A stretch of 64,000 nt of DNA, taken from contig JAYKHS010000007.1 of the NCBI GenBank assembly GCA_035285865.1, positions 32,001 through 96,000 of the forward strand, given 5' to 3'. A program made the position numbers and the translations under genes. The notes under the pieces were generated by a model. It had not been told where the DNA came from, made no database searches, and was given only the letters and a program-made list of their open reading frames with translations. The DNA comes from Candidatus Sericytochromatia bacterium. GTDB lineage: Bacteria; Cyanobacteriota; Sericytochromatia; S15B-MN24; VGJW01. This document shows, piece after piece, positions 6 through 16,958 of this stretch. Numbering within the stretch: the stretch's first letter is position 1; every line of letters begins with the position of its first letter.

Positions 6-401
6 TTGCCTCCTTCCTGGCCGGACGAGCCTTCCATCCGGGTTCTCCTTCTGCCCAAGGACACCAACGAACATGGCACCATCTTCGGGGGCGTGATCCT
101 GTCCCATCTCGACCTTGCGGCCGCCGTGGAAGCGGGTCGTCACACCGAACATCGCTTCGTCACCGTTGCCCTGCGCGAGGTCAAGTTCGAGCAACCGGTC
201 CACGTGGGGGACACCGTCAGTTTCTACACCCGCCTCGAAGGTCGCGGGCGCACCAGCCTGACGATCGGCATCCGGGTCGAAGCCCGGCGTCGCGGCCCGA
301 GCGCCGAATCCGTCCTCGTGACGACGGCCGAAGCCGTGTTCGTGACCGTCGGTACAGATGGCCGGCCCGTGGCCTGGGACAGCCCGTTGCCCGTCAGTTG
401 A
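6..401 (+). CDS. Acyl-CoA thioesterase (hotdog fold, YciA-like); start may lie upstream of the window
   Basis: LLPKDTNEHGTIFGGVILSHLDLAA, FVTVA and VHVGD...GRTS motifs of 4HBT/YciA thioesterases. Confidence 0.9.
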   Translation: MPPSWPDEPSIRVLLLPKDTNEHGTIFGGVILSHLDLAAAVEAGRHTEHRFVTVALREVKFEQPVHVGDTVSFYTRLEGRGRTSLTIGIRVEARRRGPSAESVLVTTAEAVFVTVGTDGRPVAWDSPLPVS

Positions 402-1014
402 CGGAAGCCGAAGCCTCAGCGGTAGCCTTGGCCTCATCGGTGGCTGGCACCGAGCCCGAGGCCATGCGGCCCTCGGCCCACCCCTCGAGCCCGTCGAGCA
501 AGGCCCTCTGATAGCCCTCGAGGGTGCCGATGCCCAGCCCGAAGACCACCCCGAAGGCCTTGTCCATGAAGGACTTCGGCTCGAGCCGGGTCGAGAACAC
601 CACCTTGACCGAACCGGAAGCCGCCGGTTCGAGGTCGAAGCGCATGAGCATCGGAGCGGCAGGCGCCCCGACTTTGGGCCGGTTGCGGAAGGCATAGGTC
701 TTCCCGGGCTCCCAGACCGCCACCTCCTGCTCCCAAGTCTGCCCCTGGCCGATGGCATACCGGATAAGGGTCGGGTTGCCCGTGGCCGGTTCGACCGAGC
801 GGGAGCCCACCGGAGGCATCATCGGATCGCCCTTGGCGGCCCAGAGCTGCCAACCCGTGACGCCCTGCCAGACCTTGTCGACCGGTGCGTCGATGACCCT
901 GTCCGAGGTACGCGTCACCACGGAAGGCCCAAGCAGCCCGGCGAGGCCGATGGCCGCAAGCGGCAGGATCATCAGGGTAGCCGCAACGACACCGAAACGT
1001 GAAAGAGCACTCAT
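394..1014 (-). CDS. SRPBCC (START/polyketide cyclase-like) ligand-binding protein with N-terminal membrane anchor
   Basis: ATG at 1014 overlaps the upstream stop (ATGA); hydrophobic N-terminus followed by 'DRVIDAPVDKVW', typical of SRPBCC proteins. Confidence 0.75.
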   Translation of the reverse strand: MSALSRFGVVAATLMILPLAAIGLAGLLGPSVVTRTSDRVIDAPVDKVWQGVTGWQLWAAKGDPMMPPVGSRSVEPATGNPTLIRYAIGQGQTWEQEVAVWEPGKTYAFRNRPKVGAPAAPMLMRFDLEPAASGSVKVVFSTRLEPKSFMDKAFGVVFGLGIGTLEGYQRALLDGLEGWAEGRMASGSVPATDEAKATAEASASVN

Positions 1015-2510
1015 GGCCAGACAGTGTACCGCCTGCGGCCGACAACGCGCCTGAGGGCAGCTCGATCGACCTTCGTCCGGTGGCGGGGGTCCCGAGGAAT
1101 CCGCGACACCCGGACCACAGGCAGTGCGGCGAGGCCCACCCGCGAAAGGGCAGCGCCCAGCCCCGGATCCAGGGGTCCTTCCACGGCCAGGACCACCTCC
1201 CCGTCCACCGAGATCAGGCCCGCACCTCCGACCAAGCCTTGCGCGCCGAGCCACTGCTCGAGCGCCAGAGCGTGACGTATGGTCCCGAAGCTCAGGATCG
1301 GATCCCCGACCCGCCCAAGCAGCCATAACCTGCCGAATTCGTCGAGGCGGCCGACATCCCCCATGTGATGCCAAAGTACTCCGTCTGCATCGACGGACTT
1401 GCCCGCCGGCAGGCCATCCTCCCCCCAGTAGGCCCGGACGACATGTGGACCCGCCACCAGCACTTCGTCCTGCTCGGAAAGACGCAGGCCGACTCCGGGC
1501 ACGGGCAAGCCGACGCAGACGCCCCCGCCCTCCAGCGTTCCGGTTGCCAGGACTTCCCAGGATGGCTCGCCCCTGCATAGGGCGACAGGTTCGGCCTCGG
1601 TCGATCCGTAGCCGATGGCGACCCGGGCATCGGGAAAGATTCGGGCGGCGGCAGGCGGCAAGGCAGGATCCACGGCCCCACCGCCCACGAAAACCGCGCG
1701 CAGGCCCGGGACAGGAACACCCTGGCGCACCCACGCGGCAAGCAGGGCAGGCGAAGCCACGACGAGCGTCGCCCCTTGCGCACGCATCTGCTCCCGAGCC
1801 GTGGCCGCCGCCGCATCGTGGCCCGCCAGCCGATGGCGAACGGGCAAGAGGACGGCGGCACCCGTCGCCAGATGATGCAGGGTGAACACGGGCAGGGTAG
1901 CCAAGGCGACATCCCCCGGTCCGTCGCCCAGCTCGGCCGCCAGCAGGCGATGCTGGGCCAACAGCGTGCCGTGGGTCCTGATGGCACCCTTGGGACGACC
2001 TGAGCTGCCTGTCGTGAAAGTCACCAGCGCTGGGTCATGCTCTCCTGCGGCTTTCGGTGCCCGACAGGCGAGCTCGGGGGAACCCGGAGCAAGCGCCGTG
2101 GCGGCATCGAGGATACGTGGCACCCGCCCGAGCGGAGGCCAGAAGAACCGCAGCGCATGCCAACGGCGAGGCAGCACCACCGCGGCGGGCGACGTCCGCG
2201 CGAGGGCATCCGACAGCCCGGAGAGGCCCATCCAGGGGTCGAGGAAGACCGCGACGCCCCCTGTCCACCAGATGGCCAGCAGCCAGACATAGAGCGCCTC
2301 GGACAACGGCGTGAAGACGACGATCCTGTCGCCGGGACGCAGGCCTTCGGCTTCGAGGCGCGCAGCAAGGCGACGCACGGCGTCGGTCAACGCACCGTAG
2401 GACACGACGCGATGGCGACGCGCCCGGGGATCCTCAGGAACGACAAGGGCCGGTGCATCCGGACGCGCTGCCGCGTGGGCCAGCAGGATGGCACAGATGC
2501 CGTCGCTCAC
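1011..2510 (-). CDS. AMP-binding adenylate-forming enzyme (acyl-CoA ligase, OleC-like)
   Basis: FTTGSSGRPKG, YGSTEAEP, WHHMGDVG and C-terminal PRDPRHRTKVDR; GTG start overlaps the upstream stop (GTGA). Confidence 0.88.
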   Translation of the reverse strand: MSDGICAILLAHAAARPDAPALVVPEDPRARRHRVVSYGALTDAVRRLAARLEAEGLRPGDRIVVFTPLSEALYVWLLAIWWTGGVAVFLDPWMGLSGLSDALARTSPAAVVLPRRWHALRFFWPPLGRVPRILDAATALAPGSPELACRAPKAAGEHDPALVTFTTGSSGRPKGAIRTHGTLLAQHRLLAAELGDGPGDVALATLPVFTLHHLATGAAVLLPVRHRLAGHDAAAATAREQMRAQGATLVVASPALLAAWVRQGVPVPGLRAVFVGGGAVDPALPPAAARIFPDARVAIGYGSTEAEPVALCRGEPSWEVLATGTLEGGGVCVGLPVPGVGLRLSEQDEVLVAGPHVVRAYWGEDGLPAGKSVDADGVLWHHMGDVGRLDEFGRLWLLGRVGDPILSFGTIRHALALEQWLGAQGLVGGAGLISVDGEVVLAVEGPLDPGLGAALSRVGLAALPVVRVSRIPRDPRHRTKVDRAALRRVVGRRRYTVWP

Positions 2511-3565
2511 GCCCCGTCCCACCGGCAGAGGATGTGCGTCCGCATCGGCCGACCGCCGATGCCCCGGGACATGTGCAAGGAAGGGTTGTCCTCGGCCATC
2601 AGGGCGTGGACCACTTCGGGAATCCCGAGTTCCGCCGCACGCCGGTGGAAGGCATGCGCCAGGGCGTGGCCGACCGCCGTGCGGCGATGGGCCCGCGCGA
2701 CGCCAAGGGTCTTCAGGACGGCCCGCCCGGGTCTGCGGATCCGCCAGGCCAGCGTCATGCGTCCCGCAAGGCCACCGGCACGCCCCAGCCACGGGCGCAG
2801 ATCCGGTACGCCTAGCAGAAAGCCGACGACCTCCCCCCGCCCATCACGAGCCACGAAGGAAAGGCCCGTGCGCCACAAAGGAGCCATCGGCGCGAAGCGG
2901 GCGAGAAAGGCCTCTGCCGAAAGGGGTGCGAGGTCCAGTCCGCCGGAGAATATTTCGGGCACCATCGGATGTAATTCACCCAGCACGTCCCGCCAGTTGC
3001 CCGGCGTCACCGGCGCAATCCGGTACCCGGCGTCCCGGGCCGGTGCAGCAGAGACGTCCAGCAGACGAGCTGCCTCCTCCGGAGCCTCCTGGACCTGGCT
3101 GATGACCCGGTGGCTCGGCCTGCCCCCGGCCAGTTGCCACAACCGCGGGTCCTCAGGGGGATTCTCGGGCTCCAGCAGGTACGGAGGGTCGTCCTCCGGC
3201 CCCACGCTGAAACGCGCACGCTCCCATGCATCTCCGTCCACCGGCCCCAGGATGGTCGTCGCCCCTTCCTCCCGCAGCCACGAGACCGACGCCCCGAGCA
3301 GTTCGGTGACGACGGCCGGATCCGGCATGGCGGCGAACAGGCCCAGGTGCCCGATCGAACCGCCCGGCAGGCGCCACGCCGTGACGGTGCCGTGCCCCTC
3401 GAGCACGAAGTGCCGACAAACCGCCCAGTCTGCAGTCCGCGAGACGATGGCGGCGAAACGGGCGGGATCCGGGGCGAGAAGCACCGGTCGGTGGCGCCAG
3501 ACCCGTTCCGAGGTCTCGGTCCACGCCCGAAGCGCCTCGTTTGCGCCGGCACCGAACGCCTTCAC
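2507..3565 (-). CDS. GNAT-fold N-acyltransferase-like protein
   Basis: GHLGLFAA, ILGPVDGDAW, LLEPENP and C-terminal KTLGVARAHRRTAVG (acyl-CoA-binding motif A-like); coupled to neighbours on both sides. Confidence 0.7.
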   Translation of the reverse strand: MKAFGAGANEALRAWTETSERVWRHRPVLLAPDPARFAAIVSRTADWAVCRHFVLEGHGTVTAWRLPGGSIGHLGLFAAMPDPAVVTELLGASVSWLREEGATTILGPVDGDAWERARFSVGPEDDPPYLLEPENPPEDPRLWQLAGGRPSHRVISQVQEAPEEAARLLDVSAAPARDAGYRIAPVTPGNWRDVLGELHPMVPEIFSGGLDLAPLSAEAFLARFAPMAPLWRTGLSFVARDGRGEVVGFLLGVPDLRPWLGRAGGLAGRMTLAWRIRRPGRAVLKTLGVARAHRRTAVGHALAHAFHRRAAELGIPEVVHALMAEDNPSLHMSRGIGGRPMRTHILCRWDGA

Positions 3566-6225
3566 GCTGTCGGCACCTCCGGGAGGTCCTGAGGCCGCAC
3601 CGTTCCTGCACGGCCATCCATCTTGACCACCTGGCCGTCACGCAGTGCGCGCGTGAGCCCCGGAATGCCCACGATGGCCGGAAGGCCCATCTCGCGGGCC
3701 ACGATGGCCGAATGGGAGAGGATGCTGCCTCGCTCGATGAGCAGCCCGGCTGACGCCGGATAGAGCGGAATCCAGCCCGGATCGGTCCGGGTGGTCGCAA
3801 GGATCTGGCCCGCCATGCCTGCCGCGTCCGCGGGACGCAGCACGAGGCGCACCGGAGCCGTCACCTTGCCCGGACAGCAACTGACACCGTGCAACACGCC
3901 TTCGGCATCCGGGCCGACGGGTCGATCCGGCAGAACCGCACGCCGGGCCGAAAGGGTCGGCACGCCCATCGTCGTGAATCGCTCGGGAACGTCCATCGCC
4001 CGCCAAGCCGCGACCTGACGGGCGCGCAAGGCAGCCAGCGCGCGCAAGTCCGTCGTCACGGAACGTCCCTCGACCCAGGCCCAGAGCTCCGGGACCGTCA
4101 GGTAGAAGACATCTTCGTGCCGGTCGAGCAGGCCGCTGGCAGCCATGTGGTGGCCGATCGCGCGGAACATGTCGCGACACACCCCGAAGATTCGCGTACG
4201 GGCAAACCGCAGGTTCTCGCGGTTGCGAACGTGCTTGCGTGCCTGTCCGAGGACGGCTCGGACCACCAGGGCGCGCAACGGAAAGCCGGCCAGCCGGCGG
4301 GCCAGCTCGGCCTCTGCGGCCTTGCGCATCGCGGACTCGGCATCGGGTGCGGGGAGGCGCCCGTCGGCCGCAAGGCGCAGATAGTTCTGCAAGGTGGCAT
4401 AAACGAACGCCGGCTGGTCCTTGAGGGTGGGTTCCTCGAGCTTGAGTTCGTCCATGCAGCGGAAGCCCCAGCGGTCGAGGAAGCCCGCGACACCCGCCGC
4501 AAGCTCGGGGTCCCCGTCGCCGACCCAGTCCGGTACCTGCGCTGCCTCGCGCTCGAGCAACGCCGAGGAGCGCCGGGGGTCACGAGACAGTTCGGCAGCC
4601 GTCTCGAGCAGCCAACGCGTCGGGGCGGTCGACTCGATGCCCCCTTCTCCCGACAGCAGATCATTCTGCAGCCCCGGATCCGCATCGGGCAGCCACGAAG
4701 ACAGCAATTTGCGCAGCAGGCCATAGGAGACCATGGCGAAGGTGTCCGTCAGGATGGGCGCCTGCCATCGCCAGAGCAGCGAACGCTCGATGGAGTCGTA
4801 GGCTTCGGCGATCTCGTCGGGCGGCATCGCGCGCCAGTCCCGATGCCGCCAAGTCTCGTACACCTGGTTGAAGTGGATTTGGAACCACGCGACCCGACGA
4901 TCGATGGTGAGAAAAGCCCAGATCAGTCTTCCACCGACGGCCAGCATCGGCCCGAAACGCGCCATCAGGCCGGCACGCGCCGTTTCGGCACCGACAGAGG
5001 CCGAGGCCTTGACCCCCATCATCTGCTCCATGAAAGCCTTGTTGGCCTCATAGCCCGGCAAGAGCGCCACGATGCGGTACCAGTTGCGCATGTTGTAGTA
5101 GATGCGCCCGGCGTGCAGGCCAATCATGTTGCGGAAGGTCGCGGCATTGGCCTGCAGCTTGTCCGGAGGTACCCCCAGCAGGGCCGCGATCTGCTGGTAG
5201 ACGATGGTGTACGCCTGACTCGCGAAGCTGAAGGTCAACGGGGAGGTCACGCCATTGTAGGACTCGACGATGTTGGAGTTGTCCCAAAGACGTTCCAGCA
5301 CACCCTCATGCAGGTCCGGACGACCGCTTGGCAGGCCCGGATCGAGCGTGGTCACCGGTCGGGTCTGCAGGAAGAACCATTCCTCGGCGACCAGGGCGAC
5401 CTCGATGTCCTGGGGATGACCGGCCTCACGGGCAATCCGGCGCGCCTCGCCGGCAAGCGCGCGCACCTTGACCTCATCGAGGCAGGGCTGCATCCGCCGT
5501 GCGCCGGTCACCGCGACGACTGCCGTCCGGCGCTCGCCATCGTGCTTTACGGCGGCATCCTTGTCGGCGACCTCGTAGGACACCGCTCCCAGCCGTTCCG
5601 TGAACCCGTCCGTGGGCACCAGATCGGCCACGACACCCTCACCCAGGCCCCACGCGACCCGTCCCACCACGGTTTCCCGATCACCTGTCACGGGATGGAC
5701 CGTGAAGACCACACCGCTGACCTCGGCATCGACCATCTCCTGGATGACCACGGCCAGCGAAGCGGCCTCGGCACCGAGACCGCGCTGGCCAAGGTAGGCG
5801 AGAACCGCCTCGGAGCCGGCGGCGGCCCAGACATCGGGCAGGGCCTCGAGAACGCCCTCTGGTCCCCGGGCACCCAGCACGGTCCGGAACTGGCCCGCGA
5901 ACGAGCTGCCCCCCCCATCCTCGCCCGTGGCCGACGAGCGGACGGCGAAACGGCGCTGGGCCACCTCGGCCCCCCAGCGTTCGACCATCCGCGCACGGAC
6001 TTCCCGGGCCAGCGCCTCGGGCACCTGAGCACCGGCACCGGCATCGCGCCAGGCCTGCCACGCCTCGACCGTCAGCACCAGCCAGCCGGGGACGCGCAGG
6101 CCGTGCGCGCGCAGCCATGCGAGGTTCGCGGCCTTCCCGCCCACCAGCCTCGGCTCGACGCTGCGCACATCGTCCTCGGAGACCAGCCACCGCGCAGCCG
6201 CGGCAGGATTCTCGACGGGCGTCAC
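3562..6225 (-). CDS. PEP/pyruvate-binding-domain dikinase (PEP synthase / rifampin phosphotransferase architecture)
   Basis: N-terminal VGGKAANL, AVRSSATGEDG...SFAGQF and LQTRPVT; C-terminal phospho-His swivel ERGSILSHSAIVAREMGLP; GTG at 6225 overlaps the upstream stop. Confidence 0.88.
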   Translation of the reverse strand: MTPVENPAAAARWLVSEDDVRSVEPRLVGGKAANLAWLRAHGLRVPGWLVLTVEAWQAWRDAGAGAQVPEALAREVRARMVERWGAEVAQRRFAVRSSATGEDGGGSSFAGQFRTVLGARGPEGVLEALPDVWAAAGSEAVLAYLGQRGLGAEAASLAVVIQEMVDAEVSGVVFTVHPVTGDRETVVGRVAWGLGEGVVADLVPTDGFTERLGAVSYEVADKDAAVKHDGERRTAVVAVTGARRMQPCLDEVKVRALAGEARRIAREAGHPQDIEVALVAEEWFFLQTRPVTTLDPGLPSGRPDLHEGVLERLWDNSNIVESYNGVTSPLTFSFASQAYTIVYQQIAALLGVPPDKLQANAATFRNMIGLHAGRIYYNMRNWYRIVALLPGYEANKAFMEQMMGVKASASVGAETARAGLMARFGPMLAVGGRLIWAFLTIDRRVAWFQIHFNQVYETWRHRDWRAMPPDEIAEAYDSIERSLLWRWQAPILTDTFAMVSYGLLRKLLSSWLPDADPGLQNDLLSGEGGIESTAPTRWLLETAAELSRDPRRSSALLEREAAQVPDWVGDGDPELAAGVAGFLDRWGFRCMDELKLEEPTLKDQPAFVYATLQNYLRLAADGRLPAPDAESAMRKAAEAELARRLAGFPLRALVVRAVLGQARKHVRNRENLRFARTRIFGVCRDMFRAIGHHMAASGLLDRHEDVFYLTVPELWAWVEGRSVTTDLRALAALRARQVAAWRAMDVPERFTTMGVPTLSARRAVLPDRPVGPDAEGVLHGVSCCPGKVTAPVRLVLRPADAAGMAGQILATTRTDPGWIPLYPASAGLLIERGSILSHSAIVAREMGLPAIVGIPGLTRALRDGQVVKMDGRAGTVRPQDLPEVPTA

Positions 6226-7169
6226 AGGCTCACCCCCCGGCCAACCACCAGCCCGACGACAAGAGCGGCCTGCACGAGCACGAAGACCGCCGTCCCCATG
6301 ATGCGGACGGCCTTGGCCGTCGCCGGTCTCGGCCGCACGGCGAAAAGCAGCAGCACCGCTGTTCCGGCTAGCCCCGACAGCAGCACCAGCACCAGGCTGC
6401 CGGCAGGCAAGGCCAACCGAAGCGCCAGCCAGGCCGAGCCCACGATGGCCAGGACCAGCGACAGCCATCCCGCGAGGGACGCCAGCTGGGGACCGTGCAC
6501 CCGCGTGTAGGTGGCGAGGGTCTCGAGCTCTTCCTCGGGTGAACGGGCCTTGCGGGTCAGTTCGAAGAGCAGCCCCAGTCCCACGGCCACGGCGATGACC
6601 AGAGAGAACTCGACCCCGATACCGGAGGGCCCGAGGGGCAACACGCCGACGGCAAGGCAAATCAGGGGCACGATGCCCTGATGGAGCAGGGCGTAGGTCA
6701 GGACCCTGGGCCGCAGCCAGTTGCCCATGAAGAACTCGACACGCATCAGGAGGGCAAACGCCGTGACGGCGCCGAAACCGATGAGGCCCCAACGTCCCAG
6801 CGTTAGGGCCAGAACGGCCATCAGCACGGCAATGCCCCAGCCCAGGATCCGCAACTCGTCCAGCGTGACGATGCCCCGCTGGACGACACGCTCGGGATGG
6901 TTGACGGCATCGTCGGCAAAGTCCTTGAACTCGTCCATGACGCGCAACAGCAGGAAGACGAGGAAGGTCAGGCCGAAAGCCGCGGCGGCTCTTCCGTCGA
7001 GGGGGACCGCGCGATCGCCGGCCAACGCGACGGCGCCCCCGTGGGCCAGTCCGAAGAACAGCAGGATGCCGACCAGATGGGTCGCCAGCGGGAACCGCTC
7101 GGCCTGGTAAGCCCACCAGCGCCGCCAGGCGGGTGCGCGGGTATGTTGGGACAAGGTGCCCTGATTCAT
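6222..7169 (-). CDS. UbiA-family membrane prenyltransferase
   Basis: Multiple TM helices; Asp-rich motif RVMDEFKDFADD...PERVVQRG. Confidence 0.8.
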   Translation of the reverse strand: MNQGTLSQHTRAPAWRRWWAYQAERFPLATHLVGILLFFGLAHGGAVALAGDRAVPLDGRAAAAFGLTFLVFLLLRVMDEFKDFADDAVNHPERVVQRGIVTLDELRILGWGIAVLMAVLALTLGRWGLIGFGAVTAFALLMRVEFFMGNWLRPRVLTYALLHQGIVPLICLAVGVLPLGPSGIGVEFSLVIAVAVGLGLLFELTRKARSPEEELETLATYTRVHGPQLASLAGWLSLVLAIVGSAWLALRLALPAGSLVLVLLSGLAGTAVLLLFAVRPRPATAKAVRIMGTAVFVLVQAALVVGLVVGRGVSL

Positions 7170-7216
7170 CCTTTCGTCATACCCCGACCGCGGCAGCCGG
7201 TCCACCCCGAACGAAG

Positions 7217-8341
7217 ATGCCCGAGATAGCCGACGGCCCTCACGACCTGCCCACCCGCGCCATCGCGGGACGCCCCTTCCACCGCACCATCGGTTACGCC
7301 AATTGTTGGGAGGATGCCCGGGTCCTGCACCAGGGCCTGCAGCCCGAACCCGGAAACCGGATCCTGTCCATCGGGTCCGGTGGCTGCAACAGCCTCGCCC
7401 TGCTGGCGAGCGACCCGGAACAGGTCGTGGTGGTGGACATGAACATCCGGCAGTTGCATGTCCTCGAACTCAAGATGGCCGCGCTCGCGCAACTCCCCCA
7501 CGAGGACAAGCTCGCCCTGCTGGGCGTGGGCGGGGCGGAGCGACGTGCGGGCCTTTACCGGAGCGTGCGCACGGCGCTCTCTCCCGCAGCCCGGGAGTTC
7601 TTCGATGCCCATCCCGGCGTGCTGCGCGCTGGGCTGCTGCAGTCGGGACGCCTCGAACGGTACATGCTGGCCTTCGGCAGCCTGCTGCGCGTTGGACTCG
7701 GCAAGGGCTTCATCCACGACTTCGTTCGCCTCGAGAACCCCCGGGAACAGGCGCAGCGGTTTGCCCGGCACTGGCAAGGCAAGGCCTGGCGGGGGCTGTT
7801 CCGGGTGTTCTTCAGCCGTGCCGTCCTCGAGCGCGCCAAGGATCCCGCGCACTTCCGGCAGGTGCCCGGGGATGCGCTGGGAGACAGGCTTCGTGCCCGC
7901 GCCGAGCATGTCCTGACGGCGTTGCCGATGCGCGAGAACCCCTACATGCGCCTGATTCTGGAAGGTACCTTCACCGATGACGAGGCAGGCCTGCCGTTCT
8001 ACCTGACGCGGGCAGCGCAGCCGATCCTCGCCGCGCGCCTCGATCGGATCCGCCCGCGTCACGGCACCCTTGTCGAAGCTCTGGACGCTGGCCCCTACGA
8101 CCGTTTCAACCTGTCCAACGTCTTCGACTGGATGCCCGAAGGCGAGATGCGGGCGGTGCACGCCACGCTCGGCACCGCCGCCATCCCGGGCGCACGACTC
8201 TGCTGGTGGAACACCCTGCTGGAGCGACGGATGCCGGACTTGCCGGAGCTCGAGGCGCTCGACGCGGAGGCGGAGGCCCTGCTGCTGCGGGACCGCTTCA
8301 TCTACGCGAACTTCCGCATCGGCCGCTTCCGCGCGCCCTAG
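7217..8341 (+). CDS. DUF3419 / BtaA-like SAM-dependent 3-amino-3-carboxypropyltransferase
   Basis: YANCWED, SAM-binding LSIGSGGCNSL, VDMN.RQL..LELK, GRLERY and LSNVFDWM. Confidence 0.82.
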   Translation: MPEIADGPHDLPTRAIAGRPFHRTIGYANCWEDARVLHQGLQPEPGNRILSIGSGGCNSLALLASDPEQVVVVDMNIRQLHVLELKMAALAQLPHEDKLALLGVGGAERRAGLYRSVRTALSPAAREFFDAHPGVLRAGLLQSGRLERYMLAFGSLLRVGLGKGFIHDFVRLENPREQAQRFARHWQGKAWRGLFRVFFSRAVLERAKDPAHFRQVPGDALGDRLRARAEHVLTALPMRENPYMRLILEGTFTDDEAGLPFYLTRAAQPILAARLDRIRPRHGTLVEALDAGPYDRFNLSNVFDWMPEGEMRAVHATLGTAAIPGARLCWWNTLLERRMPDLPELEALDAEAEALLLRDRFIYANFRIGRFRAP

Positions 8342-9291
8342 GATCCTGCAACCCCGCGCAGGCCCGAACCACCGGGAAGCCACACCTTGAGCGCAGCGGG
8401 TCGGATGGCAAAGGAAAGGGAGGATCCCGCTGCAAGGGGCTCCCCGTCGCCGTGGAAGACGAACGGCCGCGATGCCGACAGCGTGAAGGCCGAGCCGACG
8501 GCCTGATGCGCGGGCGGGAAGGGTCGGGCCGGCAACGGCAGGCTGATCCTCCCGACGTCGCGGAGAATGCCGGCGCGCGTGGTACCCAGCAGGGCCATCA
8601 GGCGCAGGGTTCCGTCATCGGGCCGGGCATCGGGCACCGCCCGCACGAAGCGACCGATGGTCGGCACGTTGTGCACGAAGATCGCCAGGCTCCGAAACCG
8701 ATCCGGCAGGCCGTCGGCCTGCTCGATAGTCCAGTCCTGCCAAGCATCCGGATTGCCCGCAACGATACCGACCGTGTGCACCAGGTAGGCCAGAGCCCCC
8801 ATGGCGCGCGTTCCGCTGCCCAGCCAGTCCGAACGCGCCTTGGCCCTGTTGACCGACTCGGCAACCGCGGCAACGGCCCCGACCCCACCGCCGGTCAGAA
8901 AGGGGCGCCCCTCAACTTCAAGCACGTCGACCTGGGCGACACGCCCCACCCGCAGGGCTTCCCCCGCCTTCCAGGGATGCCGAGGCATCCCGATGTGCCG
9001 TGCCCAGTCATTCGCCGTGCCTGCAGGGCACACGGCCACGGGCAGGTCCTGTTCGAGCGCCGGCATGATGGCCGCATTGAGTCCGCCGTCCCCGGAAACC
9101 ACCACCAAGGCATCGTGCCCGCGTGCCGCCGCCCCGCGCATCAGTTCAAGGGACTCGTCCCGGCTGCGCGGGACGGCACCGACCGCACCGGGCAGGGCAA
9201 GGCCCTCCAGAAAATCCTCGAGCAAACCGCGCCGGGCTCCCCGACGTGCGGCCGGATTCACCAGCACCAGCGGCCTGAACGGAACGGACAC
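8338..9291 (-). CDS. Diacylglycerol/lipid kinase family protein (YegS/DgkB-like)
   Basis: VNPAA, SGDGG, PAGTANDWAR and HGDGE; its stop overlaps the DUF3419 stop at CTAG. Confidence 0.85.
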   Translation of the reverse strand: MSVPFRPLVLVNPAARRGARRGLLEDFLEGLALPGAVGAVPRSRDESLELMRGAAARGHDALVVVSGDGGLNAAIMPALEQDLPVAVCPAGTANDWARHIGMPRHPWKAGEALRVGRVAQVDVLEVEGRPFLTGGGVGAVAAVAESVNRAKARSDWLGSGTRAMGALAYLVHTVGIVAGNPDAWQDWTIEQADGLPDRFRSLAIFVHNVPTIGRFVRAVPDARPDDGTLRLMALLGTTRAGILRDVGRISLPLPARPFPPAHQAVGSAFTLSASRPFVFHGDGEPLAAGSSLSFAIRPAALKVWLPGGSGLRGVAGS

Positions 9292-9292
9292 C

Positions 9293-10459
9293 TCAGCCCT
9301 CGCTGCTGCGCGCGGCCCAGCGTCCGAGACCGACCCCGCCCAACGCCAGCAGCGCGGACAGGCCCCAGGCCCATCGACCCAGTCCATGCAGTGCCACACC
9401 CGCAAGCAAGGGTCCGAATGCCCTGCCCAGCGCCTCGAAGGACTGCAGGGCCCCGAGGCCGGTGCCGGCATCGCCGGGCAAGCGGCGCCCCACGCCGGCA
9501 GACAGGGAAGGCCTCATCAGGGCAGACCCGACACCCAGCAGCAACAAGCCGGCACCGACGCCGGGAAGGGCCAAAGGCAGCGCCATCAGGGCGAAGCCAC
9601 AGGCAAAGGCGGCAAAGGCGAGGCTGAGGGCGCGCTCCTCACCCAGTCGGTCGATGAGCCTGCCCGCACCGCCACCGGCCACCGCCGCAGAGATCAGGCC
9701 GAGCAGGCCCAATGTTGCCCCGAGTGCCGCCGGGCCCATGCCGAATCGTTCCAGCAGGTGAACCCCGAGCACGGCCTCCATTCCGGAGAACAACAGCATC
9801 TGAAGCAGACCGGCGAGCAACAGCGGACGTCCTCGCCCCCATGAGCGCGCAAGGGCCTCGCGCAGGCTTCGGGTGGCGCGCTCCCGCTCGGGCACGAGTG
9901 TCTCGGGCAGCAGGAAAGATGCGGCAAATACCACGACCAGGCACGTCACCGAGGCCGCCTTGAAAGGCAGCTCGAGATCCCCGCTCATCGCCAACCAGCC
10001 GCCGATGGCCGGTCCGAGCACGAAGCCCAGGCCAAGCGAGGCTCCCGCGATGGCCATGCCTCGGCCCCGACCGGATGGCGCGGACAGGTCGTCGACCGCC
10101 GCAAGGGCCGCAGGCAGGAGCGCCGCAGCCATCAAGCCACCCGTCAGGCGCGCGGCGAGCAATTCGGCGTAGGTCTCGGCGAACGCCATGCCCGCAAGTG
10201 CCACGGCAAATCCAACGCCGCCCAGCAGGATGACGGGTCTTCTTCCTCGACGATCGGAGAGGCGCCCCCACCAAGGGGCCAGAATGAACTGGATGATGGC
10301 ATAGCTGCCCATCAGCGTGCCCATGGCCATCTCGGGCGAAAGCACGGCAGGGCGGGGCATCTCGGCCACGCGCTGGGGCAGGACGGGGATGACCAGGGCA
10401 AATCCGGCCATCGTCAGGAAGAGAAAGGCAGCCAGCAGGGCAAGGGCGGGAGAACGCAT
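9293..10459 (-). CDS. MFS transporter (DHA1/TetA-like)
   Basis: Motif A WGRLSDRRGRRPV, motif C LGFVLGPAIGG, about 12 TM segments; TATGAT 7 nt before ATG 10459. Confidence 0.9.
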   Translation of the reverse strand: MRSPALALLAAFLFLTMAGFALVIPVLPQRVAEMPRPAVLSPEMAMGTLMGSYAIIQFILAPWWGRLSDRRGRRPVILLGGVGFAVALAGMAFAETYAELLAARLTGGLMAAALLPAALAAVDDLSAPSGRGRGMAIAGASLGLGFVLGPAIGGWLAMSGDLELPFKAASVTCLVVVFAASFLLPETLVPERERATRSLREALARSWGRGRPLLLAGLLQMLLFSGMEAVLGVHLLERFGMGPAALGATLGLLGLISAAVAGGGAGRLIDRLGEERALSLAFAAFACGFALMALPLALPGVGAGLLLLGVGSALMRPSLSAGVGRRLPGDAGTGLGALQSFEALGRAFGPLLAGVALHGLGRWAWGLSALLALGGVGLGRWAARSSEG

Positions 10460-10595: not shown

Positions 10596-11567
10596 CTAAC
10601 GGGGCTGATTCACGGGCAGGGAACCCGACGCGGGGTCTGGGACAAACTCACGAATCTGCTTCGCGCGCAGGGCATCCTCCAGCGTGTTGAACGGGACCGC
10701 CGGATCGGCCTTGATGTGCGTCGGCCCGAGCAACTGCGGCAGCGGCAGCGGCGAATCGGAAGCTGCCGGAGCAAACTTCAGCTCGACTGCACCCTGCAGG
10801 AAGGACGTGGACTGGAACTCGACCTTGCCGTCCGCCTTGCGGGAGAGGAACCAGAGACGCGCGCCGGGAAGGCGGGCCTTGTCGATGACAGGGGTCGTGC
10901 TGGCGGAGGAGGGAACCCCGGCGATCAGATTGAAGACCTGGACATCGAAAGCCAGCACACGGGCCGACCAAGAGGCTGCCATTTGCGGGAATGTCTGCCC
11001 CATGCCGTCCTTGGTGATGAAACCGGCACGAACAGGCGGCACGACGAGACCGAACGGGCGAAGATCCCAAGTGACCCGCGCCGCGATGTCCCGCTTGCGC
11101 TGCTCCTCGCTGAGCTTCGTCGCATCCCCGTTGCGCTGGAAGACCACCCCGCCCAGGCTGTCCTGCGCGATGGCCACCCGATTCACGGACGGAGCCTGCT
11201 CCCCCTCCTTGGCGACGATCGAGGTCGTGATGGCCTGATCGACATCCTTCAGGCGAATCTCGACCTGACGCGTCTGGTCATTGGCCTCGAGTTTCGTGAA
11301 CCGGACCTCTCCGTTCACGATGTCGTATTCATCCGCACCCAGCGTCCGCCCGTCCACGACGACGGCTTCGACGTCCTCCTCGGCCAGCGTCTGCGCCTGT
11401 CCGTTCTCGTCGAGGAAGTCCAGCTTGATGCCGGCATTCTGAAGCAGCGTCGTGGCATTCTGGACGGCCTGCTGGACCTGCGCCGGGGACAGGTTGCAGC
11501 CGACGAGCACGGTGGCTGTTGCGGCAAGAGCAGTGAACAGGGGCCGGAAGGTCCGGGGTGCACGCAT
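10596..11567 (-). CDS. Hypothetical lipoprotein
   Basis: Signal peptide with lipobox LVGC; coding-like codon usage; GAGG upstream. Confidence 0.75.
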   Translation of the reverse strand: MRAPRTFRPLFTALAATATVLVGCNLSPAQVQQAVQNATTLLQNAGIKLDFLDENGQAQTLAEEDVEAVVVDGRTLGADEYDIVNGEVRFTKLEANDQTRQVEIRLKDVDQAITTSIVAKEGEQAPSVNRVAIAQDSLGGVVFQRNGDATKLSEEQRKRDIAARVTWDLRPFGLVVPPVRAGFITKDGMGQTFPQMAASWSARVLAFDVQVFNLIAGVPSSASTTPVIDKARLPGARLWFLSRKADGKVEFQSTSFLQGAVELKFAPAASDSPLPLPQLLGPTHIKADPAVPFNTLEDALRAKQIREFVPDPASGSLPVNQPR

Positions 11568-11761
11568 GGGGAGTTGCCTCGCGGATCGTAAGCGGACGCC
11601 TGCCGTGCAGCCTAGGGGGCCGAAGAGGACGTCCCGGGAACGACCGATATTAGCACGTCAAGGATGCTATGATGCTCCCGTCGGCCTCGCCCCCGGGCGG
11701 CGTCGAACCGCAGGCGGCAGGTGCCCGACAACATGCCGCCCCGTGCCCCTCTTCCGGAAGG

Positions 11762-12718
11762 ATGTCACACGTGTCGGATACCTTGCTCTTCAGGCGTTTC
11801 GGCCAGCTGATCATGGGCCTTGTCGGCCTGACGGTCCTGCTGGTCTTCGCAGGCGTCATCGTTCGGGCCACGGGTTCGGGGCTGGGTTGCGGAACGGCCG
11901 GTGGCTGGCATGATTGGCCCTTGTGCCACGGGCAACTGCTGCCCCCTGGCGAGACGACCGCCATCATCGAGTTCTCGCATCGCGCCATCGCGTCGATCGT
12001 CAGCACCGGCATGCTGGTCGCCGTGGGCTGGCTGGCGTGGACCCCGCGGCTTCGCGGGGCACTCGGCGGACACATGGCCTTGGCGTGCACCTTGCTGGTC
12101 GTCCAGATCACCTGGGGTGCGCTCATCATCCGCCACATGGTGCCGCCCGAGCTGGTCGTGACGCACCTCGCGACGGCTTTGGCCTTCTTCGCCACCATGA
12201 TCACGCTCAGCCTCAGGGCCTTCCGGCTCGCGAACGGCTCAGCGGACCCGCTCGAGCACGGTCGGGCGTACATGGGGCTCGCGCTGGGCACGACCCTCGC
12301 GGTGTACCTGCAAGCCCTGGCGGGTGGCGTGGTGGCCAACTTCGAAGCGGGCCTCGCCTGCCCGGACTTCCCGACCTGCCACGGAGCGTGGCTTCCGGCC
12401 ATGGTGGGCAACGTGGCGCTGCAGATGATTCATCGCTTCGGGGCCTACGCCGTCACGGGACTGGTCCTGACGCTGGCCTGGCGGACCCGGAAGGAGCAGG
12501 GATGGCTGCGCAGGCTGCCTTTGCTGGCTGTCGGCGTCCTTGTCCTGCAGGTCACGCTGGGCATCCTGAACGTCCTCTACAAGCTGCCGCTCGTCGTGAC
12601 GGCCGCCCACCACGGCAACGCCTACCTGCTCTTCGCGCTGCTGATCGGCTTCTCGTACCGGCTTGTCGCGGCCCGGTCCCTGGCCCCCGAGGCAAGGTCC
12701 GCGGTCGTCGCCGCCTGA
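11762..12718 (+). CDS. ctaA: Heme A synthase (COX15/CtaA family)
   Basis: GLGC...WPLCHG, EFSHR, second Cys pair ACPDFPTCHG, conserved His residues, 8 TM; start could be GTG 11771. Confidence 0.9.
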   Translation: MSHVSDTLLFRRFGQLIMGLVGLTVLLVFAGVIVRATGSGLGCGTAGGWHDWPLCHGQLLPPGETTAIIEFSHRAIASIVSTGMLVAVGWLAWTPRLRGALGGHMALACTLLVVQITWGALIIRHMVPPELVVTHLATALAFFATMITLSLRAFRLANGSADPLEHGRAYMGLALGTTLAVYLQALAGGVVANFEAGLACPDFPTCHGAWLPAMVGNVALQMIHRFGAYAVTGLVLTLAWRTRKEQGWLRRLPLLAVGVLVLQVTLGILNVLYKLPLVVTAAHHGNAYLLFALLIGFSYRLVAARSLAPEARSAVVAA

Positions 12719-13309: not shown

Positions 13310-15220
13310 ATGGACCTCACGGAAGTCCTGGTGGTCGTCTTCGCCTCGGCCATCGCCGGCCGGCTGGTCGACTTTTCTGCCGTCTGGTTCCTGTTCCACC
13401 CCTATCGCAAGGTCAACCTGCCCCTGATCCGGGAGCTGGGTGTCCTGCCGAGACGTCAGGAAGCCCTCGCCGACCAGGTCGCCCTGCTCATCGAAGAGCG
13501 TCTGATCACCCGGGAACGCATCTCGGCCTATCTGGAATCCGGCGAAATCGCGACCAAGGTCCAGGGCTCCGTGCGTGCCATCCTGCACGACGTCCTGACC
13601 ACGCCTCATCCTTCGGTGCGGGACATGCTGCAGCGGCACCTGGGCGAGGCCGTCGACGTCGATGCCGAGATTGCCATGCTCTCGGAACGTGCAGCCGAAG
13701 CCCTCGCCGGGTTGCTCGCCCGACCGGGCTTCCGTGCGCGCCTGACCAACCTCGCGGAGGACCTGCTGCGTCAGTGGGGACCGCGGACGCTCGACGAGTC
13801 CTTGCCTCCCGACCTTGCCGACCGCATCATCCACCATCTCTCGGGTCGGTTCGTGGAGTGGACCGACAACGCGGACGGCGAGGCCAGGCGCCTCGACGCG
13901 TGGCTTGCCTCACTGGGCCCATTGCCGGATCTGGTCCCCCAGGAGACGCTGGACCTGATCCAGGAGCGCCTGAAGGATCGCCTGCCGGACCTTGCCCGCA
14001 TCCTCGAGGACGTCCTGCAGGAGCCTCGGGTCAAGGCGTTCCTGAGAACCTATCTGGTCGAGGTCGTCGACCGGCTGGTGGCCACCAGCCCGAATCTGTT
14101 TTCCGTCGAGGGTCTGCTCGGCGCGTGGAGGCAGCTTTTCCCCGAGGACTTCGCCAAGCGCCTCGACCAATTCGTCGACGACACCCTGCCCCGGCTGCGC
14201 AAGGCCCTCGAGAATCCGGACACGCTGGCCTTCGTGCGTGCCCGCATCGACCGGGCCTTCGCGGAGGCGCGCGTGACGCCGGTAGGCGCTTGGTACGGCC
14301 GTCTCGGCGATCGTGGCCGCGCAGAACTGGTCACGGCGGTGGCCACCCTGCTGCGCAGTCCCATAGCCCTCGCCGTGGCCACGGAGCTTGCCAGACTCGG
14401 TGTCCAGCGTCTGCTGGCCACGCCCATCGAACGCTTCCTGCCGGCGTCATGGCGCGAGGCTGACCCCGTCGGCCGCCGTCTGGCCGAGTTGGAAGAAGTC
14501 CCGATCGAGGACTGGCCGGAGGTGCTTCTGCCCCGCCTTCAGGAACTGCTCACCGGGCAGGAGTTGACGGACGGGTTGCTGGCGGCGGCCACCAACGGAG
14601 ATGGGCGAAGCCTCGCTGCCTGGCTGCGTGCCCACGTGCCCGAGGAGACCGATGCAGGGCGCGAGTGCGCTGCCTATGCCGCCGCCCTCGAAACCGGCAC
14701 GAACCGACCCGAGGGGCATGCGACCCCCCTTCGCGTGGCGGTGGATCGCGCGTGTGCGATGGCTGCGGAGCCCGCGGCCCAGGCCACCCTCAGGCGCTGG
14801 GTGGCCCGGGGCATCGAGGCCCTGGCGGGCCTGCCCGTGGGTCGGCCCGCGGACTGGCTCGACGAAGCGCGGGCCGAGCGTCTGGAATCCCTGCTGGTGA
14901 CCCAGGTGCAGGGCCTCCTCCGCAGCCAGGCCCACCGGGTGGCAGAAACCCTGGACTTCAAGGACATGGTGCGGGCCGGCATCATGCGCGCTGAACCTGC
15001 GGCCATCGAGGACGTCGTCAAGCGTCGCCTCGCCCGTCGGGAGTTCAACACGATCTTCCTCATCGGCCTGATCTTCGGCGGTGGCGTGGGGTTGGCCGCG
15101 ACGCTGCTCTTCAGGCAGGTCGCCGTCTGGTCCGTCTCGCTCGGCTGGAGCGGTGCGGCAGGTGTGGCGGCAGCAGGCGTGGGCATGGTGCTTGTGATGC
15201 TGAGGTTCGTCCGGGTATGA
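13310..15220 (+). CDS. DUF445-family membrane-anchored protein
   Basis: N-terminal TM with AVWFLFHPY...GVLPRRQEALA, long helical middle, C-terminal IFLIGLIFGGGVG TM. Confidence 0.75.
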   Translation: MDLTEVLVVVFASAIAGRLVDFSAVWFLFHPYRKVNLPLIRELGVLPRRQEALADQVALLIEERLITRERISAYLESGEIATKVQGSVRAILHDVLTTPHPSVRDMLQRHLGEAVDVDAEIAMLSERAAEALAGLLARPGFRARLTNLAEDLLRQWGPRTLDESLPPDLADRIIHHLSGRFVEWTDNADGEARRLDAWLASLGPLPDLVPQETLDLIQERLKDRLPDLARILEDVLQEPRVKAFLRTYLVEVVDRLVATSPNLFSVEGLLGAWRQLFPEDFAKRLDQFVDDTLPRLRKALENPDTLAFVRARIDRAFAEARVTPVGAWYGRLGDRGRAELVTAVATLLRSPIALAVATELARLGVQRLLATPIERFLPASWREADPVGRRLAELEEVPIEDWPEVLLPRLQELLTGQELTDGLLAAATNGDGRSLAAWLRAHVPEETDAGRECAAYAAALETGTNRPEGHATPLRVAVDRACAMAAEPAAQATLRRWVARGIEALAGLPVGRPADWLDEARAERLESLLVTQVQGLLRSQAHRVAETLDFKDMVRAGIMRAEPAAIEDVVKRRLARREFNTIFLIGLIFGGGVGLAATLLFRQVAVWSVSLGWSGAAGVAAAGVGMVLVMLRFVRV

Positions 15221-15866: not shown

Positions 15867-16958
15867 TCAGGGTGCAGGTGCCGGCTGGAAGGTCCCGTCC
15901 AGGATCTGCGCGCGCCAGCGTTCGACACGACGCTGCAGATGCCGCAGGTTGTGGATGGACAGCAGCGTGTGGGCCAGCCACTCTCCGGCGCGGACAAGGT
16001 GATGCAGGTAGCGACGGTCGAACCTGGCACACGTCATGCAGTCGCAATCCGAGTCGATGGGCAAGGCATCCTCCGCGAACCGCGCGGCCTTGATGTGGAA
16101 GCGGCTCTCTCCGGACCAGACCGTACCGTGCCGCGCCATCCGCGTGGGATGCACGCAATCGGCCATGTCGATGCCGTGGGTGATGGCGAGATGAAGATCC
16201 TCGGGCGTGCCGATGCCCATCAGGTACCGTGGTTTGGTCGCCGGGAGCAACGGGGTCGTGACGGCAAGCGTCGCCGCCATGTCGGCCCGGGACTCTCCGA
16301 CCGAGAGCCCACCCACGGCATATCCGGGAAAATCCATCGGCACGAGTGCCTCGGCCGACCGACGCCGCTCGGCGGGATCGATGCCGCCCTGCACGATGCC
16401 GAAGAGCGCCTGATCCGGACGATCGTGGACGGCAAGGCAGCGCTCGGCCCACCGCGTCGTTCGATCGACGGCGCGGCGAACCTCGGCCGGATGGGCCGGT
16501 AGCCGGATACACTCGTCGAAAGCCATCGCGATGTCCGCTCCGAGATCCATCTGGATCCGCATCGAGGTTTCGGGGTCCATGAACCATCGCGAGCCGTCGA
16601 TGGGGCTGCGGAAGCGGACGCCCTCGTCGCTGATCGAGCGCAGCGCCGCCAGAGAGAAGACCTGAAAGCCGCCGGAGTCCGTCAGCATCGCCCGGGGCCA
16701 GCGCATGAAAGCATGCAGACCGCCGGCCCGCGCGACGCGCTCGGAACCCGGACGCAGCATGCAGTGGAAGGCGTTGGCAAGGACGATGCCCGCTCCGGTA
16801 TCGGCCACCTGCTCCGGCAGCAGGGTCTTGACCGTCGCCTGGGTGCCCACGGGCATGAAGGTGGGCGTCGGAATGTCCCCGTGGGGAGTATGCAGGATGC
16901 CCGCACGCGCCGACCCGACCTGGGCCAGCACCGTCATGCGGACGGGTGGCTGAGTCAT
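15867..16958 (-). CDS. tgt: Queuine tRNA-ribosyltransferase (tRNA-guanine transglycosylase)
   Basis: TPTFMPVGT, LTDSGGFQVFSL, FGIVQGG, PRYLMGIG, zinc site CDCMTC and HNL. Confidence 0.96.
   Translation of the reverse strand: MTQPPVRMTVLAQVGSARAGILHTPHGDIPTPTFMPVGTQATVKTLLPEQVADTGAGIVLANAFHCMLRPGSERVARAGGLHAFMRWPRAMLTDSGGFQVFSLAALRSISDEGVRFRSPIDGSRWFMDPETSMRIQMDLGADIAMAFDECIRLPAHPAEVRRAVDRTTRWAERCLAVHDRPDQALFGIVQGGIDPAERRRSAEALVPMDFPGYAVGGLSVGESRADMAATLAVTTPLLPATKPRYLMGIGTPEDLHLAITHGIDMADCVHPTRMARHGTVWSGESRFHIKAARFAEDALPIDSDCDCMTCARFDRRYLHHLVRAGEWLAHTLLSIHNLRHLQRRVERWRAQILDGTFQPAPAP

Follow-up and report, generated by a model that had tools for sequence, protein, structure and literature searches.

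Salinipostins are long-chain bicyclic phosphotriesters, and their biosynthetic cluster encodes a phosphoenolpyruvate (PEP)-synthase-like protein (Spt1), an AMP ligase (Spt2), a nucleotidyltransferase (Spt3), an acyl carrier protein (ACP; Spt4), a thioreductase (Spt5), a nucleoside diphosphate kinase (NDK; Spt6), a UbiA-type protein (Spt7) and an AfsA protein (Spt9). A role as carriers of the aliphatic chain has been proposed for Spt2 and Spt4, and spt1, 5, 6, 7 and 9 are present in every one of 91 spt-like clusters (PMC8209734). Other described relatives are the rifampin-resistance enzyme RPH, a three-domain protein with an Arg666/Glu667 pair needed for the second transfer and a hydrophobic pocket residue, Met673 (PMC4844700), the bacterial ceramide N-acyltransferase bCerS (PMC11087976), and FcrA, an HMGR-derived fatty acyl-CoA reductase with three pocket substitutions that was described for wax esters (PMC11948995). 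Here we analyse nine genes at positions 6-10459 of a 64,000-nucleotide stretch (the window) of a Candidatus Sericytochromatia genome (assembly GCA_035285865.1, contig JAYKHS010000007.1). Five core genes encode a UbiA-like membrane protein, a phospho-His dikinase, a GNAT acyltransferase, an AMP ligase and a DUF3419 protein, and a lipid kinase gene adjoins them. In salinipostin-type clusters, the dikinase and UbiA proteins belong to sister families of the two found here. We tentatively propose, with the chances somewhat below even, that 394-9291 is a unit for an alkyl-phosphoester membrane lipid with a fatty-alcohol tail phosphorylated twice and an N-acyl homoserine head.

A preliminary description of the locus had suggested that the genes form one system, and the gene-neighbourhood comparison bears this out: the core genes recur together in many phyla. 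A dikinase central-domain scan found at least 541 dikinase relatives among 600 stretches of GTDB genomes, and 886 representatives matched a UbiA-like profile with E values of 1e-30 or lower. We counted 95 dikinase loci, leaving out five duplicates as well as three loci of the host genus that are near-copies; the loci were picked via the dikinase, and related loci are not independent. The UbiA-like gene is present at 80 of the 95, the ligase at 68, and the GNAT and DUF3419 genes at 67 each. Restricting the count to the 48 loci flanked by 6 kb or more on both sides gives 46, 42, 42 and 39, with all five core genes at 32 and a kinase-slot gene in addition at 29. The UbiA-like gene lies directly upstream of the dikinase in 68/80 loci and the other gene order is shuffled; ligase and UbiA are fused in P0035, P0134 and several loci, and dikinase and DUF3419 in P0181. 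The 80 loci from the GTDB scan come from Acidobacteriota, Planctomycetota, Bdellovibrionota, Verrucomicrobiota, Myxococcota, Cyanobacteriota, Desulfosarcina and others, and two plasmid-collection records (Brevibacillus laterosporus and Roseinatronobacter) also hold the cluster. Closer to the host, the dikinase occurs in 27 of 41 related genomes, 24 of which also have DUF3419, and it is retained in 24/27 genomes of the host's order (the host genome, G000, included). We regard it as practically certain that these genes are one conserved biosynthetic unit. The thioesterase, MFS and SRPBCC genes, which had been counted in the system, were seen in the host's own family only (at locus L025 the thioesterase gene lies 1.9 kb from the SRPBCC gene); they were rejected as universal parts, and their inclusion was overstated.

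The kinship with salinipostin-type clusters was found through the dikinase. The nearest control dikinases outside the cluster came from Streptomyces AfsA loci, one of which has a UbiA-like gene at a profile E of 4e-39. The dikinase profile gave matches in 13/401 Actinomycetota genomes, and four of the nine regions retrieved (L169, L171, L173 and L174) hold an spt-like gene set, checked with Pfam fully for L169 and partly for L171 and L173, and with the cluster profiles for L174. The four spt-like dikinases reach E 1e-77 to 1e-97 on the cluster profile, are 31-34% identical to the window dikinase and share with the cluster enzymes the WDNSNI-ES and RE-LRF-R motifs, Arg676 included; in a tree, the cluster and spt-like enzymes form one clade, with support 1.000 against RPH-type controls. 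The spt-like UbiA proteins match the cluster profile (E 1e-24 to 2e-29), have both of the motifs described below and form a sister branch to the cluster proteins, and the next-best host-genome open reading frame on this profile stands at E 0.05. The window cluster is itself not an spt member because neither AfsA nor NDK is among its nine genes. The salinipostin chain is attached at a phosphate oxygen, which agrees with its designation as a long-chain phosphotriester. Because the spt-type product thus carries a long alkyl group on phosphate, the chain made here is probably fatty-acid-derived and not prenyl, and a phosphoester is likelier than an ether. Ligase, reductase, kinase, dikinase and UbiA-like protein thus make up a module common to both systems, which would be joined to an AfsA-made butyrolactone phosphate in actinomycetes and to partners made by DUF3419 and GNAT proteins here. 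In four other actinomycete loci (L162, L166, L170 and L172), a dikinase of this type neighbours AfsA and/or UbiA-like genes, and the spt gene set is incomplete. Two of them, L162 and L166, also have a gene resembling isoprenylcysteine methyltransferase, and a methyl phosphoester product would be in keeping with it.

Pfam does not recognise the UbiA-like protein, which reaches NCBIfam prenyltransferase models at sub-threshold scores only. Its structural model is confident (predicted local distance difference test 96.8), and the nearest solved fold is archaeal digeranylgeranylglyceryl phosphate (DGGGP) synthase (E 2.4e-6). The first Asp-rich motif is retained (R76-x-x-D79-E-x-K-D83-x-x-x-D87). 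The second is lost: where chlorophyll synthase has NDFKS, 80-81 of 81 copies show E203-x-x-R206-K207; the UbiA alignment is too divergent for scanning loci. The dikinase keeps the phospho-His H838 together with R669 and E670. At the position of RPH Met673, R676 is Arg in 98/98 locus copies, and Ile or Leu stands there in 4/4 RPH-type controls. Since the invariance of R669, E670, N671 and R673 was partly built into the GTDB search pattern, the R676 count was repeated on independently found homologues, 120/120 of which have Arg. The replacement of a hydrophobic residue by Arg suggests that the dikinase has an anionic acceptor. Rifampin resistance was rejected as a role for this enzyme, which scores far below the Rph cut-off in addition to the Met673-to-Arg change.

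A fatty alcohol is the probable basis of the product, and the reductases of the cluster point to it. The reductase slot holds an HMGR-like protein at 32 loci and, never together with it, an acyl-ACP-reductase-like protein at 7, a PRK07201-like reductase at 4 and an AurF-like di-iron protein at 7; Bdellovibrionota loci without FcrA have the acyl-ACP-reductase-like protein plus the PRK07201-like reductase. The cluster HMGR-like proteins keep the catalytic E/K/D/H and carry the FcrA signature: Leu862 is replaced by Phe and the HMG-binding Lys by a small residue in 32/32, and Ser684 by Asp/Glu in 31/31 that have a residue there (the human-chain Lys within NKNLVGS was taken as the published 'Lys795'). 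A mevalonate role for them was rejected on this signature, and in relatives the true HMGR lies in a separate mevalonate operon. FcrA-like genes occur in 12/41 relatives, all 12 among the 27 with the dikinase, and the accessible part of the FcrA paper mentions neither UbiA nor kinases (PMC11948995). At L168:4020-6497, in an Actinomycetota genome, the FcrA-like protein inside the cluster is extended by 400 residues at its C terminus. Most Sericytochromatia have a mevalonate operon (HMGR, GHMP kinases, IDI-2 and decarboxylase; L139:7963-13359), and the host genus (G000-G003) has no HMGR-family gene: PF00368 is absent from all four genomes, two of them 94% and 98% complete. A counterpart of the Spt5 acyl thioreductase is absent from the window locus; all four genomes have a fatty acyl reductase, in the host genome an unlinked PF07993 protein, and relatives have FcrA or acyl-ACP reductase and short-chain dehydrogenase/reductase (SDR) proteins. 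In the host, this reductase is fused to an acyltransferase on contig C13, where the fusion is overlapped by an AGPS-like FAD oxidase gene (L136:3574-8075) in a compact, eukaryote-like ether-lipid operon. A reductase of this type occurs in 15/41 relatives.

Two further positions of the cluster are exchangeable. The kinase slot is filled by a 440-residue membrane protein at 43/95 loci and by a YegS/DAGK kinase at 15/95, and both were found together at 0/95. Because it never co-occurs with the membrane protein of the same slot, the lipid kinase belongs to the unit. The fold of the membrane protein weakly matches that of CdsA (E 0.04, probability 0.99), its sequence shows apparent motifs of phytol and dolichol kinases, and it likely acts as a kinase. 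In the head slot, CdsA, a CDP-alcohol transferase and phosphatidylserine (PS) decarboxylase occur at 3 loci, none with DUF3419; at L041 CarS follows the dikinase in place of DUF3419, and at L035 phosphonate genes lie beside the UbiA-like gene. A fixed core with interchangeable head-group enzymes would be the pattern of a membrane-lipid pathway. Several variants were also seen: a second cluster type (L031, L033, L034 and L102) with CdsA, CDP-alcohol transferase, PS decarboxylase and two desaturase types and without DUF3419; a minimal operon of UbiA-like, dikinase and CarS (CDP-archaeol synthase family) genes in a bacterium (L137:2615-6749); a UbiA-like gene divergent from genes for PEP mutase, thiamine pyrophosphate-dependent decarboxylase, Fe-alcohol dehydrogenase and acyltransferase (L138:4673-9673), possibly a phosphonolipid variant; and loci with a class-III aminotransferase (L094, L117 and L122), where a fatty amine may replace the alcohol. 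At L094 the aminotransferase is fused to a reductase-like part, as in PigE, and a second dikinase is present.

The head group is suggested by the GNAT and DUF3419 proteins, which have no match in PDB sequence searches; atlas annotations offer the labels 'GNAT' and 'hypothetical' only. The GNAT family profile matches E. coli YghO at E 3e-46 (200 shuffles gave at most 2.1 bits), and in the sphingolipid gene block of E. coli M1/5 yghO adjoins genes for serine palmitoyltransferase, ACP and an acyl-AMP ligase; from this position, where the ceramide N-acyltransferase would be expected, YghO would be the bCerS orthologue. The DUF3419 protein scores 204 bits on PF11899 (cut-off 28), is ~25-30% identical to rhizobial copies and, in a quick tree of 37 rows, falls on a branch apart from the BtaA of btaAB pairs. 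A two-sequence BtaB profile gave a single weak match (E 9e-8) in all locus open reading frames and a best E of 2e-6 in the 83%-complete host genome. Since no BtaB was found, a betaine (trimethylated, zwitterionic) head is unlikely. A homoserine unit would instead be drawn from S-adenosylmethionine (SAM) by the DUF3419 protein and N-acylated by the YghO-like GNAT, for which the free homoserine amine would be a natural substrate. The AMP ligase stays below the OleC and PRK09274 cut-offs (124 bits against 900 for OleC, and 101 against 850); the OleABCD olefin pathway, with the ligase as OleC beta-lactone synthetase, was rejected on these scores and because there are no ole genes among the nine. 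Elsewhere, DUF3419 occurs with an iron redox enzyme, a GNAT and an RND exporter on a Mycobacterium riyadhense plasmid (L158:8055-13716) and with an oxidoreductase, a metallo-beta-lactamase-type hydrolase and an adenylate-forming enzyme on a Rhizobium plasmid (L159).

In the pathway that we propose, a fatty acyl thioester would first be reduced to the alcohol, by FcrA in most relatives and probably by the unlinked C13 fatty acyl reductase in the host. The lipid kinase would convert the alcohol to an alkyl phosphate, and the dikinase, turning ATP into AMP and Pi, would then make the diphosphate, with Arg676 holding the existing phosphate. The UbiA-like protein, its second acidic motif turned basic, would displace the diphosphate with a phosphate oxygen as acceptor. 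The head would be an unmethylated aminocarboxypropyl group from SAM, acylated by the GNAT with a donor activated by the AMP ligase. The evidence fixes neither the order of these last two steps nor the backbone.

Several points weigh against this proposal. Every reaction in it is deduced, and the product predicted, from the genes alone, and saturated alkyl diphosphates are poor donors in classic UbiA chemistry. The C13 reductase, fused and placed as described, likely has its own job; it is also present in 5 genomes without the dikinase, and 8/27 dikinase-bearing relatives have neither FcrA nor a C13-type reductase (other SDRs are present). The exclusivity in the kinase slot follows lineage, so that the loci are not independent. 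The membrane protein of this slot has no match in Pfam, NCBIfam or PDB sequence searches, and with the weak CdsA fold alone to go by, it could be a kinase or a cytidylyltransferase. The comparison with salinipostin biosynthesis uses spt-like clusters recognised by gene content, not Salinispora sequences; H163, kept in 80/81 cluster UbiA-like copies, is absent from Spt7-like proteins; and the literature found does not say what Spt1 and Spt7 do individually, although this may be in print. Finally, two AfsA-linked Streptomyces loci have the same dikinase type and no acyl reductase within the retrieved flanks, and thus the substrate of the dikinase need not be an alkyl phosphate.

Among other explanations, the best placed, which we nonetheless consider unlikely, is that the fatty alcohol is activated in the same way and the UbiA-like protein forms a C-O ether on glycerol or glycerol phosphate; the product would then be an alkyl ether lipid that bears homoserine or a CDP-derived head group. 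Indeed, DGGGP synthase, the nearest solved fold, forms such an ether, the variants with CdsA/PssA/Psd or CarS mirror the archaeal order, and the cluster is found in Desulfosarcina variabilis, an ether-lipid producer. Ether-lipid roles are also suggested for some FcrA (PMC11948995). However, Spt7-like proteins are far closer to the UbiA-like protein than DGGGP synthase is (profile E 1e-24 to 2e-29 versus 2e-10) and share its basic second motif, the host already has the AGPS-like ether route, and no glycerol-phosphate acyltransferase or dehydrogenase recurs among the families at three or more loci, some of which are unannotated.

A different order of events, which appears rather improbable, would have the dikinase activate the phosphate of the head partner, or close a cyclic phosphate as salinipostin-type rings need, with the kinase-made alkyl phosphate as the acceptor of the UbiA-like protein. 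This would avoid displacement at an unactivated carbon and would suit the AfsA-linked loci, where the same Arg676-bearing dikinase occurs with no reductase in the retrieved flanks; a membrane phosphoribosyltransferase (8j8j) is also among the fold matches (E 2e-3; compare decaprenyl-phosphate phosphoribosyltransferase). Kinase plus dikinase is nevertheless the simplest two-step activation, and neither AfsA nor another phosphorylated-partner gene recurs in the cluster. It is improbable, too, that the product is an exported small amphiphile, such as a phosphoester-type signal or enzyme inhibitor, and not a bulk membrane lipid: the closest characterised relatives make secreted metabolites, MMPL exporters occur at 11/95 loci, P450 at 6 and MFS at the window locus, and the spread is patchy with plasmid copies, but the dikinase is steadily retained in the host's order (24/27 genomes), cluster variants contain phospholipid head-group enzymes, and no regulator family recurs beside the cluster. 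The preliminary description had proposed a lipid or metabolite that is prenylated; a lipid is still the best reading, whereas transfer of a prenyl chain (or salvaged phytol or prenol) is very improbable, given that three unrelated acyl reductases, enzymes that form fatty alcohols, occupy the reductase slot, that no prenyl-diphosphate synthase family recurs and that the second Asp motif is lost, even though the UbiA fold, the fit of allylic diphosphates to UbiA chemistry, the lack of FcrA in the host genome and the presumed phytol-kinase motifs of the membrane slot protein would suit it.

The features of the locus are collected in Table 1.

Table 1 Features of the window locus, with library matches and place in the cluster
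Feature	Position	Strand	Match or basis	Place in cluster
Hotdog acyl-CoA thioesterase, YciA-like	6..401	+	PF03061	Probable bystander; true start may precede window
SRPBCC lipid-binding protein, N-terminal hydrophobic segment	394..1014	-	PF10604 (Polyketide_cyc2)	Lineage-specific accessory
AMP-binding (adenylate-forming) ligase, PRK09274/OleC-related	1011..2510	-	PF00501	Core
YghO-like GNAT acyltransferase, probable N-acyltransferase	2507..3565	-	PF00583 (Acetyltransf_1)	Core
Phospho-His dikinase, RPH architecture, sister family of Spt1-like proteins	3562..6225	-	PF01326 + PF00391 (PPDK_N + PEP-utilizers)	Core
UbiA-fold membrane transferase, sister family of Spt7-like proteins	6222..7169	-	Fold and motifs	Core
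Divergent gap, 47 bp, purine-rich ribosome-binding stretch before UbiA-like ATG	7170..7216	.	Sequence	
DUF3419 BtaA-like protein, probable SAM 3-amino-3-carboxypropyl transferase	7217..8341	+	PF11899, 204 bits	Core, inverted here
YegS/diacylglycerol-kinase-family lipid kinase	8338..9291	-	PF00781 + PF19279 (DAGK_cat + YegS_C)	Kinase slot
MFS transporter, possible exporter	9293..10459	-	PF07690 (MFS_1)	Lineage-specific, co-directional with operon

All nine reading frames of 6-10459 are intact. The layout agrees with the preliminary description: four 4-nt start/stop overlaps (three GTGA and one ATGA) join the five minus-strand genes from 7169 to 394, so that the SRPBCC gene is translationally coupled to the block; 47 bp separate the UbiA-like ATG at 7169 from the divergent DUF3419 ATG at 7217; and the thioesterase gene (convergent with the SRPBCC gene, 8-nt overlap) and the MFS-lipid kinase pair converge on the two ends. 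The MFS stop is followed after 1 nt by the start of the lipid kinase gene, whose far end shares 4 nt with the stop end of DUF3419. Because the MFS and kinase genes share the strand of the five-gene block, DUF3419 is a single inverted gene in a co-directional run; at the same-family locus L025, MFS, kinase, FcrA, UbiA, dikinase, GNAT, ligase and SRPBCC genes are all on one strand. The family calls made earlier hold in Pfam, except that the UbiA-like protein is recognised by its fold and 'OleC-like' describes a resemblance only. None of the nine proteins reaches an NCBIfam cut-off, and their named close homologues are from Candidatus Sericytochromatia. The neighbours beyond the MFS gene in the window are a lipoprotein-like reading frame without a Pfam match (10596-11567), heme A synthase COX15/CtaA (11669-12718), DUF445 (13310-15220) and a reading frame (15867-16958) that is presumably tgt-like, judging by a motif. 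Elsewhere in the host genome, an MMPL exporter gene (L134; contig C3, 99254-101527) is unlinked to the cluster, and this type sits inside it in other Sericytochromatia (profile E 1e-244). In Brevibacillus, a reading frame 2 kb after the cluster (L042:25793-26746) may, by resemblance, encode an ETX/MTX2-type pesticidal protein.

The literature searched, which did not extend to subscription papers, contained no description of this gene set, and a term search of the available portions of the Lipocone preprint, an ether-lipid preprint and the Ger/Mss, nocuolin and lactylate papers returned none. The earlier view that no characterised pathway has this composition therefore stands for the set as a whole and fails for half of its chemistry, which has a characterised relative in the spt cluster. 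New here are the tested kinship to Spt1- and Spt7-like proteins, the exchange in the kinase slot, which includes the lipid kinase, and a host genus that lacks FcrA. Hundreds of genomes carry the operon, those of cultured strains included (Microcoleus sp. FACHB-1515, Desulfosarcina variabilis and Roseinatronobacter sp. S2 have it complete), and its genes are labelled there as PEP synthase, HMG-CoA reductase and ubiquinone prenyltransferase, names that lead metabolic reconstructions astray. The spt-like link makes an 'unknown lipid' testable, through an alkyl-O-P bond and methionine-derived homoserine, and assays of the cluster would also settle what the dikinase and UbiA proteins do in making phosphotriester natural products. 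It is possible, though rather doubtful, that more than 10 phyla make an undescribed and perhaps glycerol-free lipid class, in which a salinipostin-type dikinase/UbiA module links fatty alcohols to N-acylated homoserine by way of a phosphodiester or triester. If true, this would be a third way, beside ester/ether glycerolipids and sphingolipids, to put two tails on one head, and the first transfer of a fatty alkyl chain by a UbiA-family protein in a lipid pathway; it may explain unidentified amino-phospholipids of planctomycetes, acidobacteria, bdellovibrios and cyanobacteria.

The set is not an spt cluster, BtaAB, Ole or RPH, and it shares parts with each of several known systems. With the bacterial sphingolipid pathway it has in common the bCerS/YghO-type GNAT, and serine palmitoyltransferase is neither among the nine genes nor recognised among the recurring families (no genome-wide profile search was made). 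With BtaA/BtaB (PMC6642084), it shares the DUF3419 family and its conserved motifs, but the window protein differs in its separate branch, its ~25-30% identity and the lack of a BtaB partner found for the cluster. The dikinase resembles RPH and PigC/RedH in architecture, phospho-His and Arg-Glu pair, yet it scores 285 bits against the Rph cut-off of 999 and 253 against 1300 for PigC, and it falls in a separate clade. The archaeal route through DGGGP synthase, CarS and archaetidylserine has the UbiA fold in common, and CarS or CdsA/PssA/Psd in cluster variants; identity to DGGGP synthase is 18%, however, and the UbiA-like protein lacks the second Asp motif and would handle a fatty and not an isoprenoid chain. 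The salinipostin cluster is the most similar, with a dikinase, AMP ligase, kinase and UbiA-type enzyme, an acyl reductase such as relatives of the window cluster have, subfamily motifs and sizes shared by the dikinases and UbiA-like proteins, and a long alkyl chain in its product. In contrast to it, the window set is without AfsA, ACP, NDK and nucleotidyltransferase and has DUF3419, a YghO-like GNAT and a lipid kinase, and whereas salinipostin clusters are found in actinomycetes, the window-type cluster extends across many phyla.

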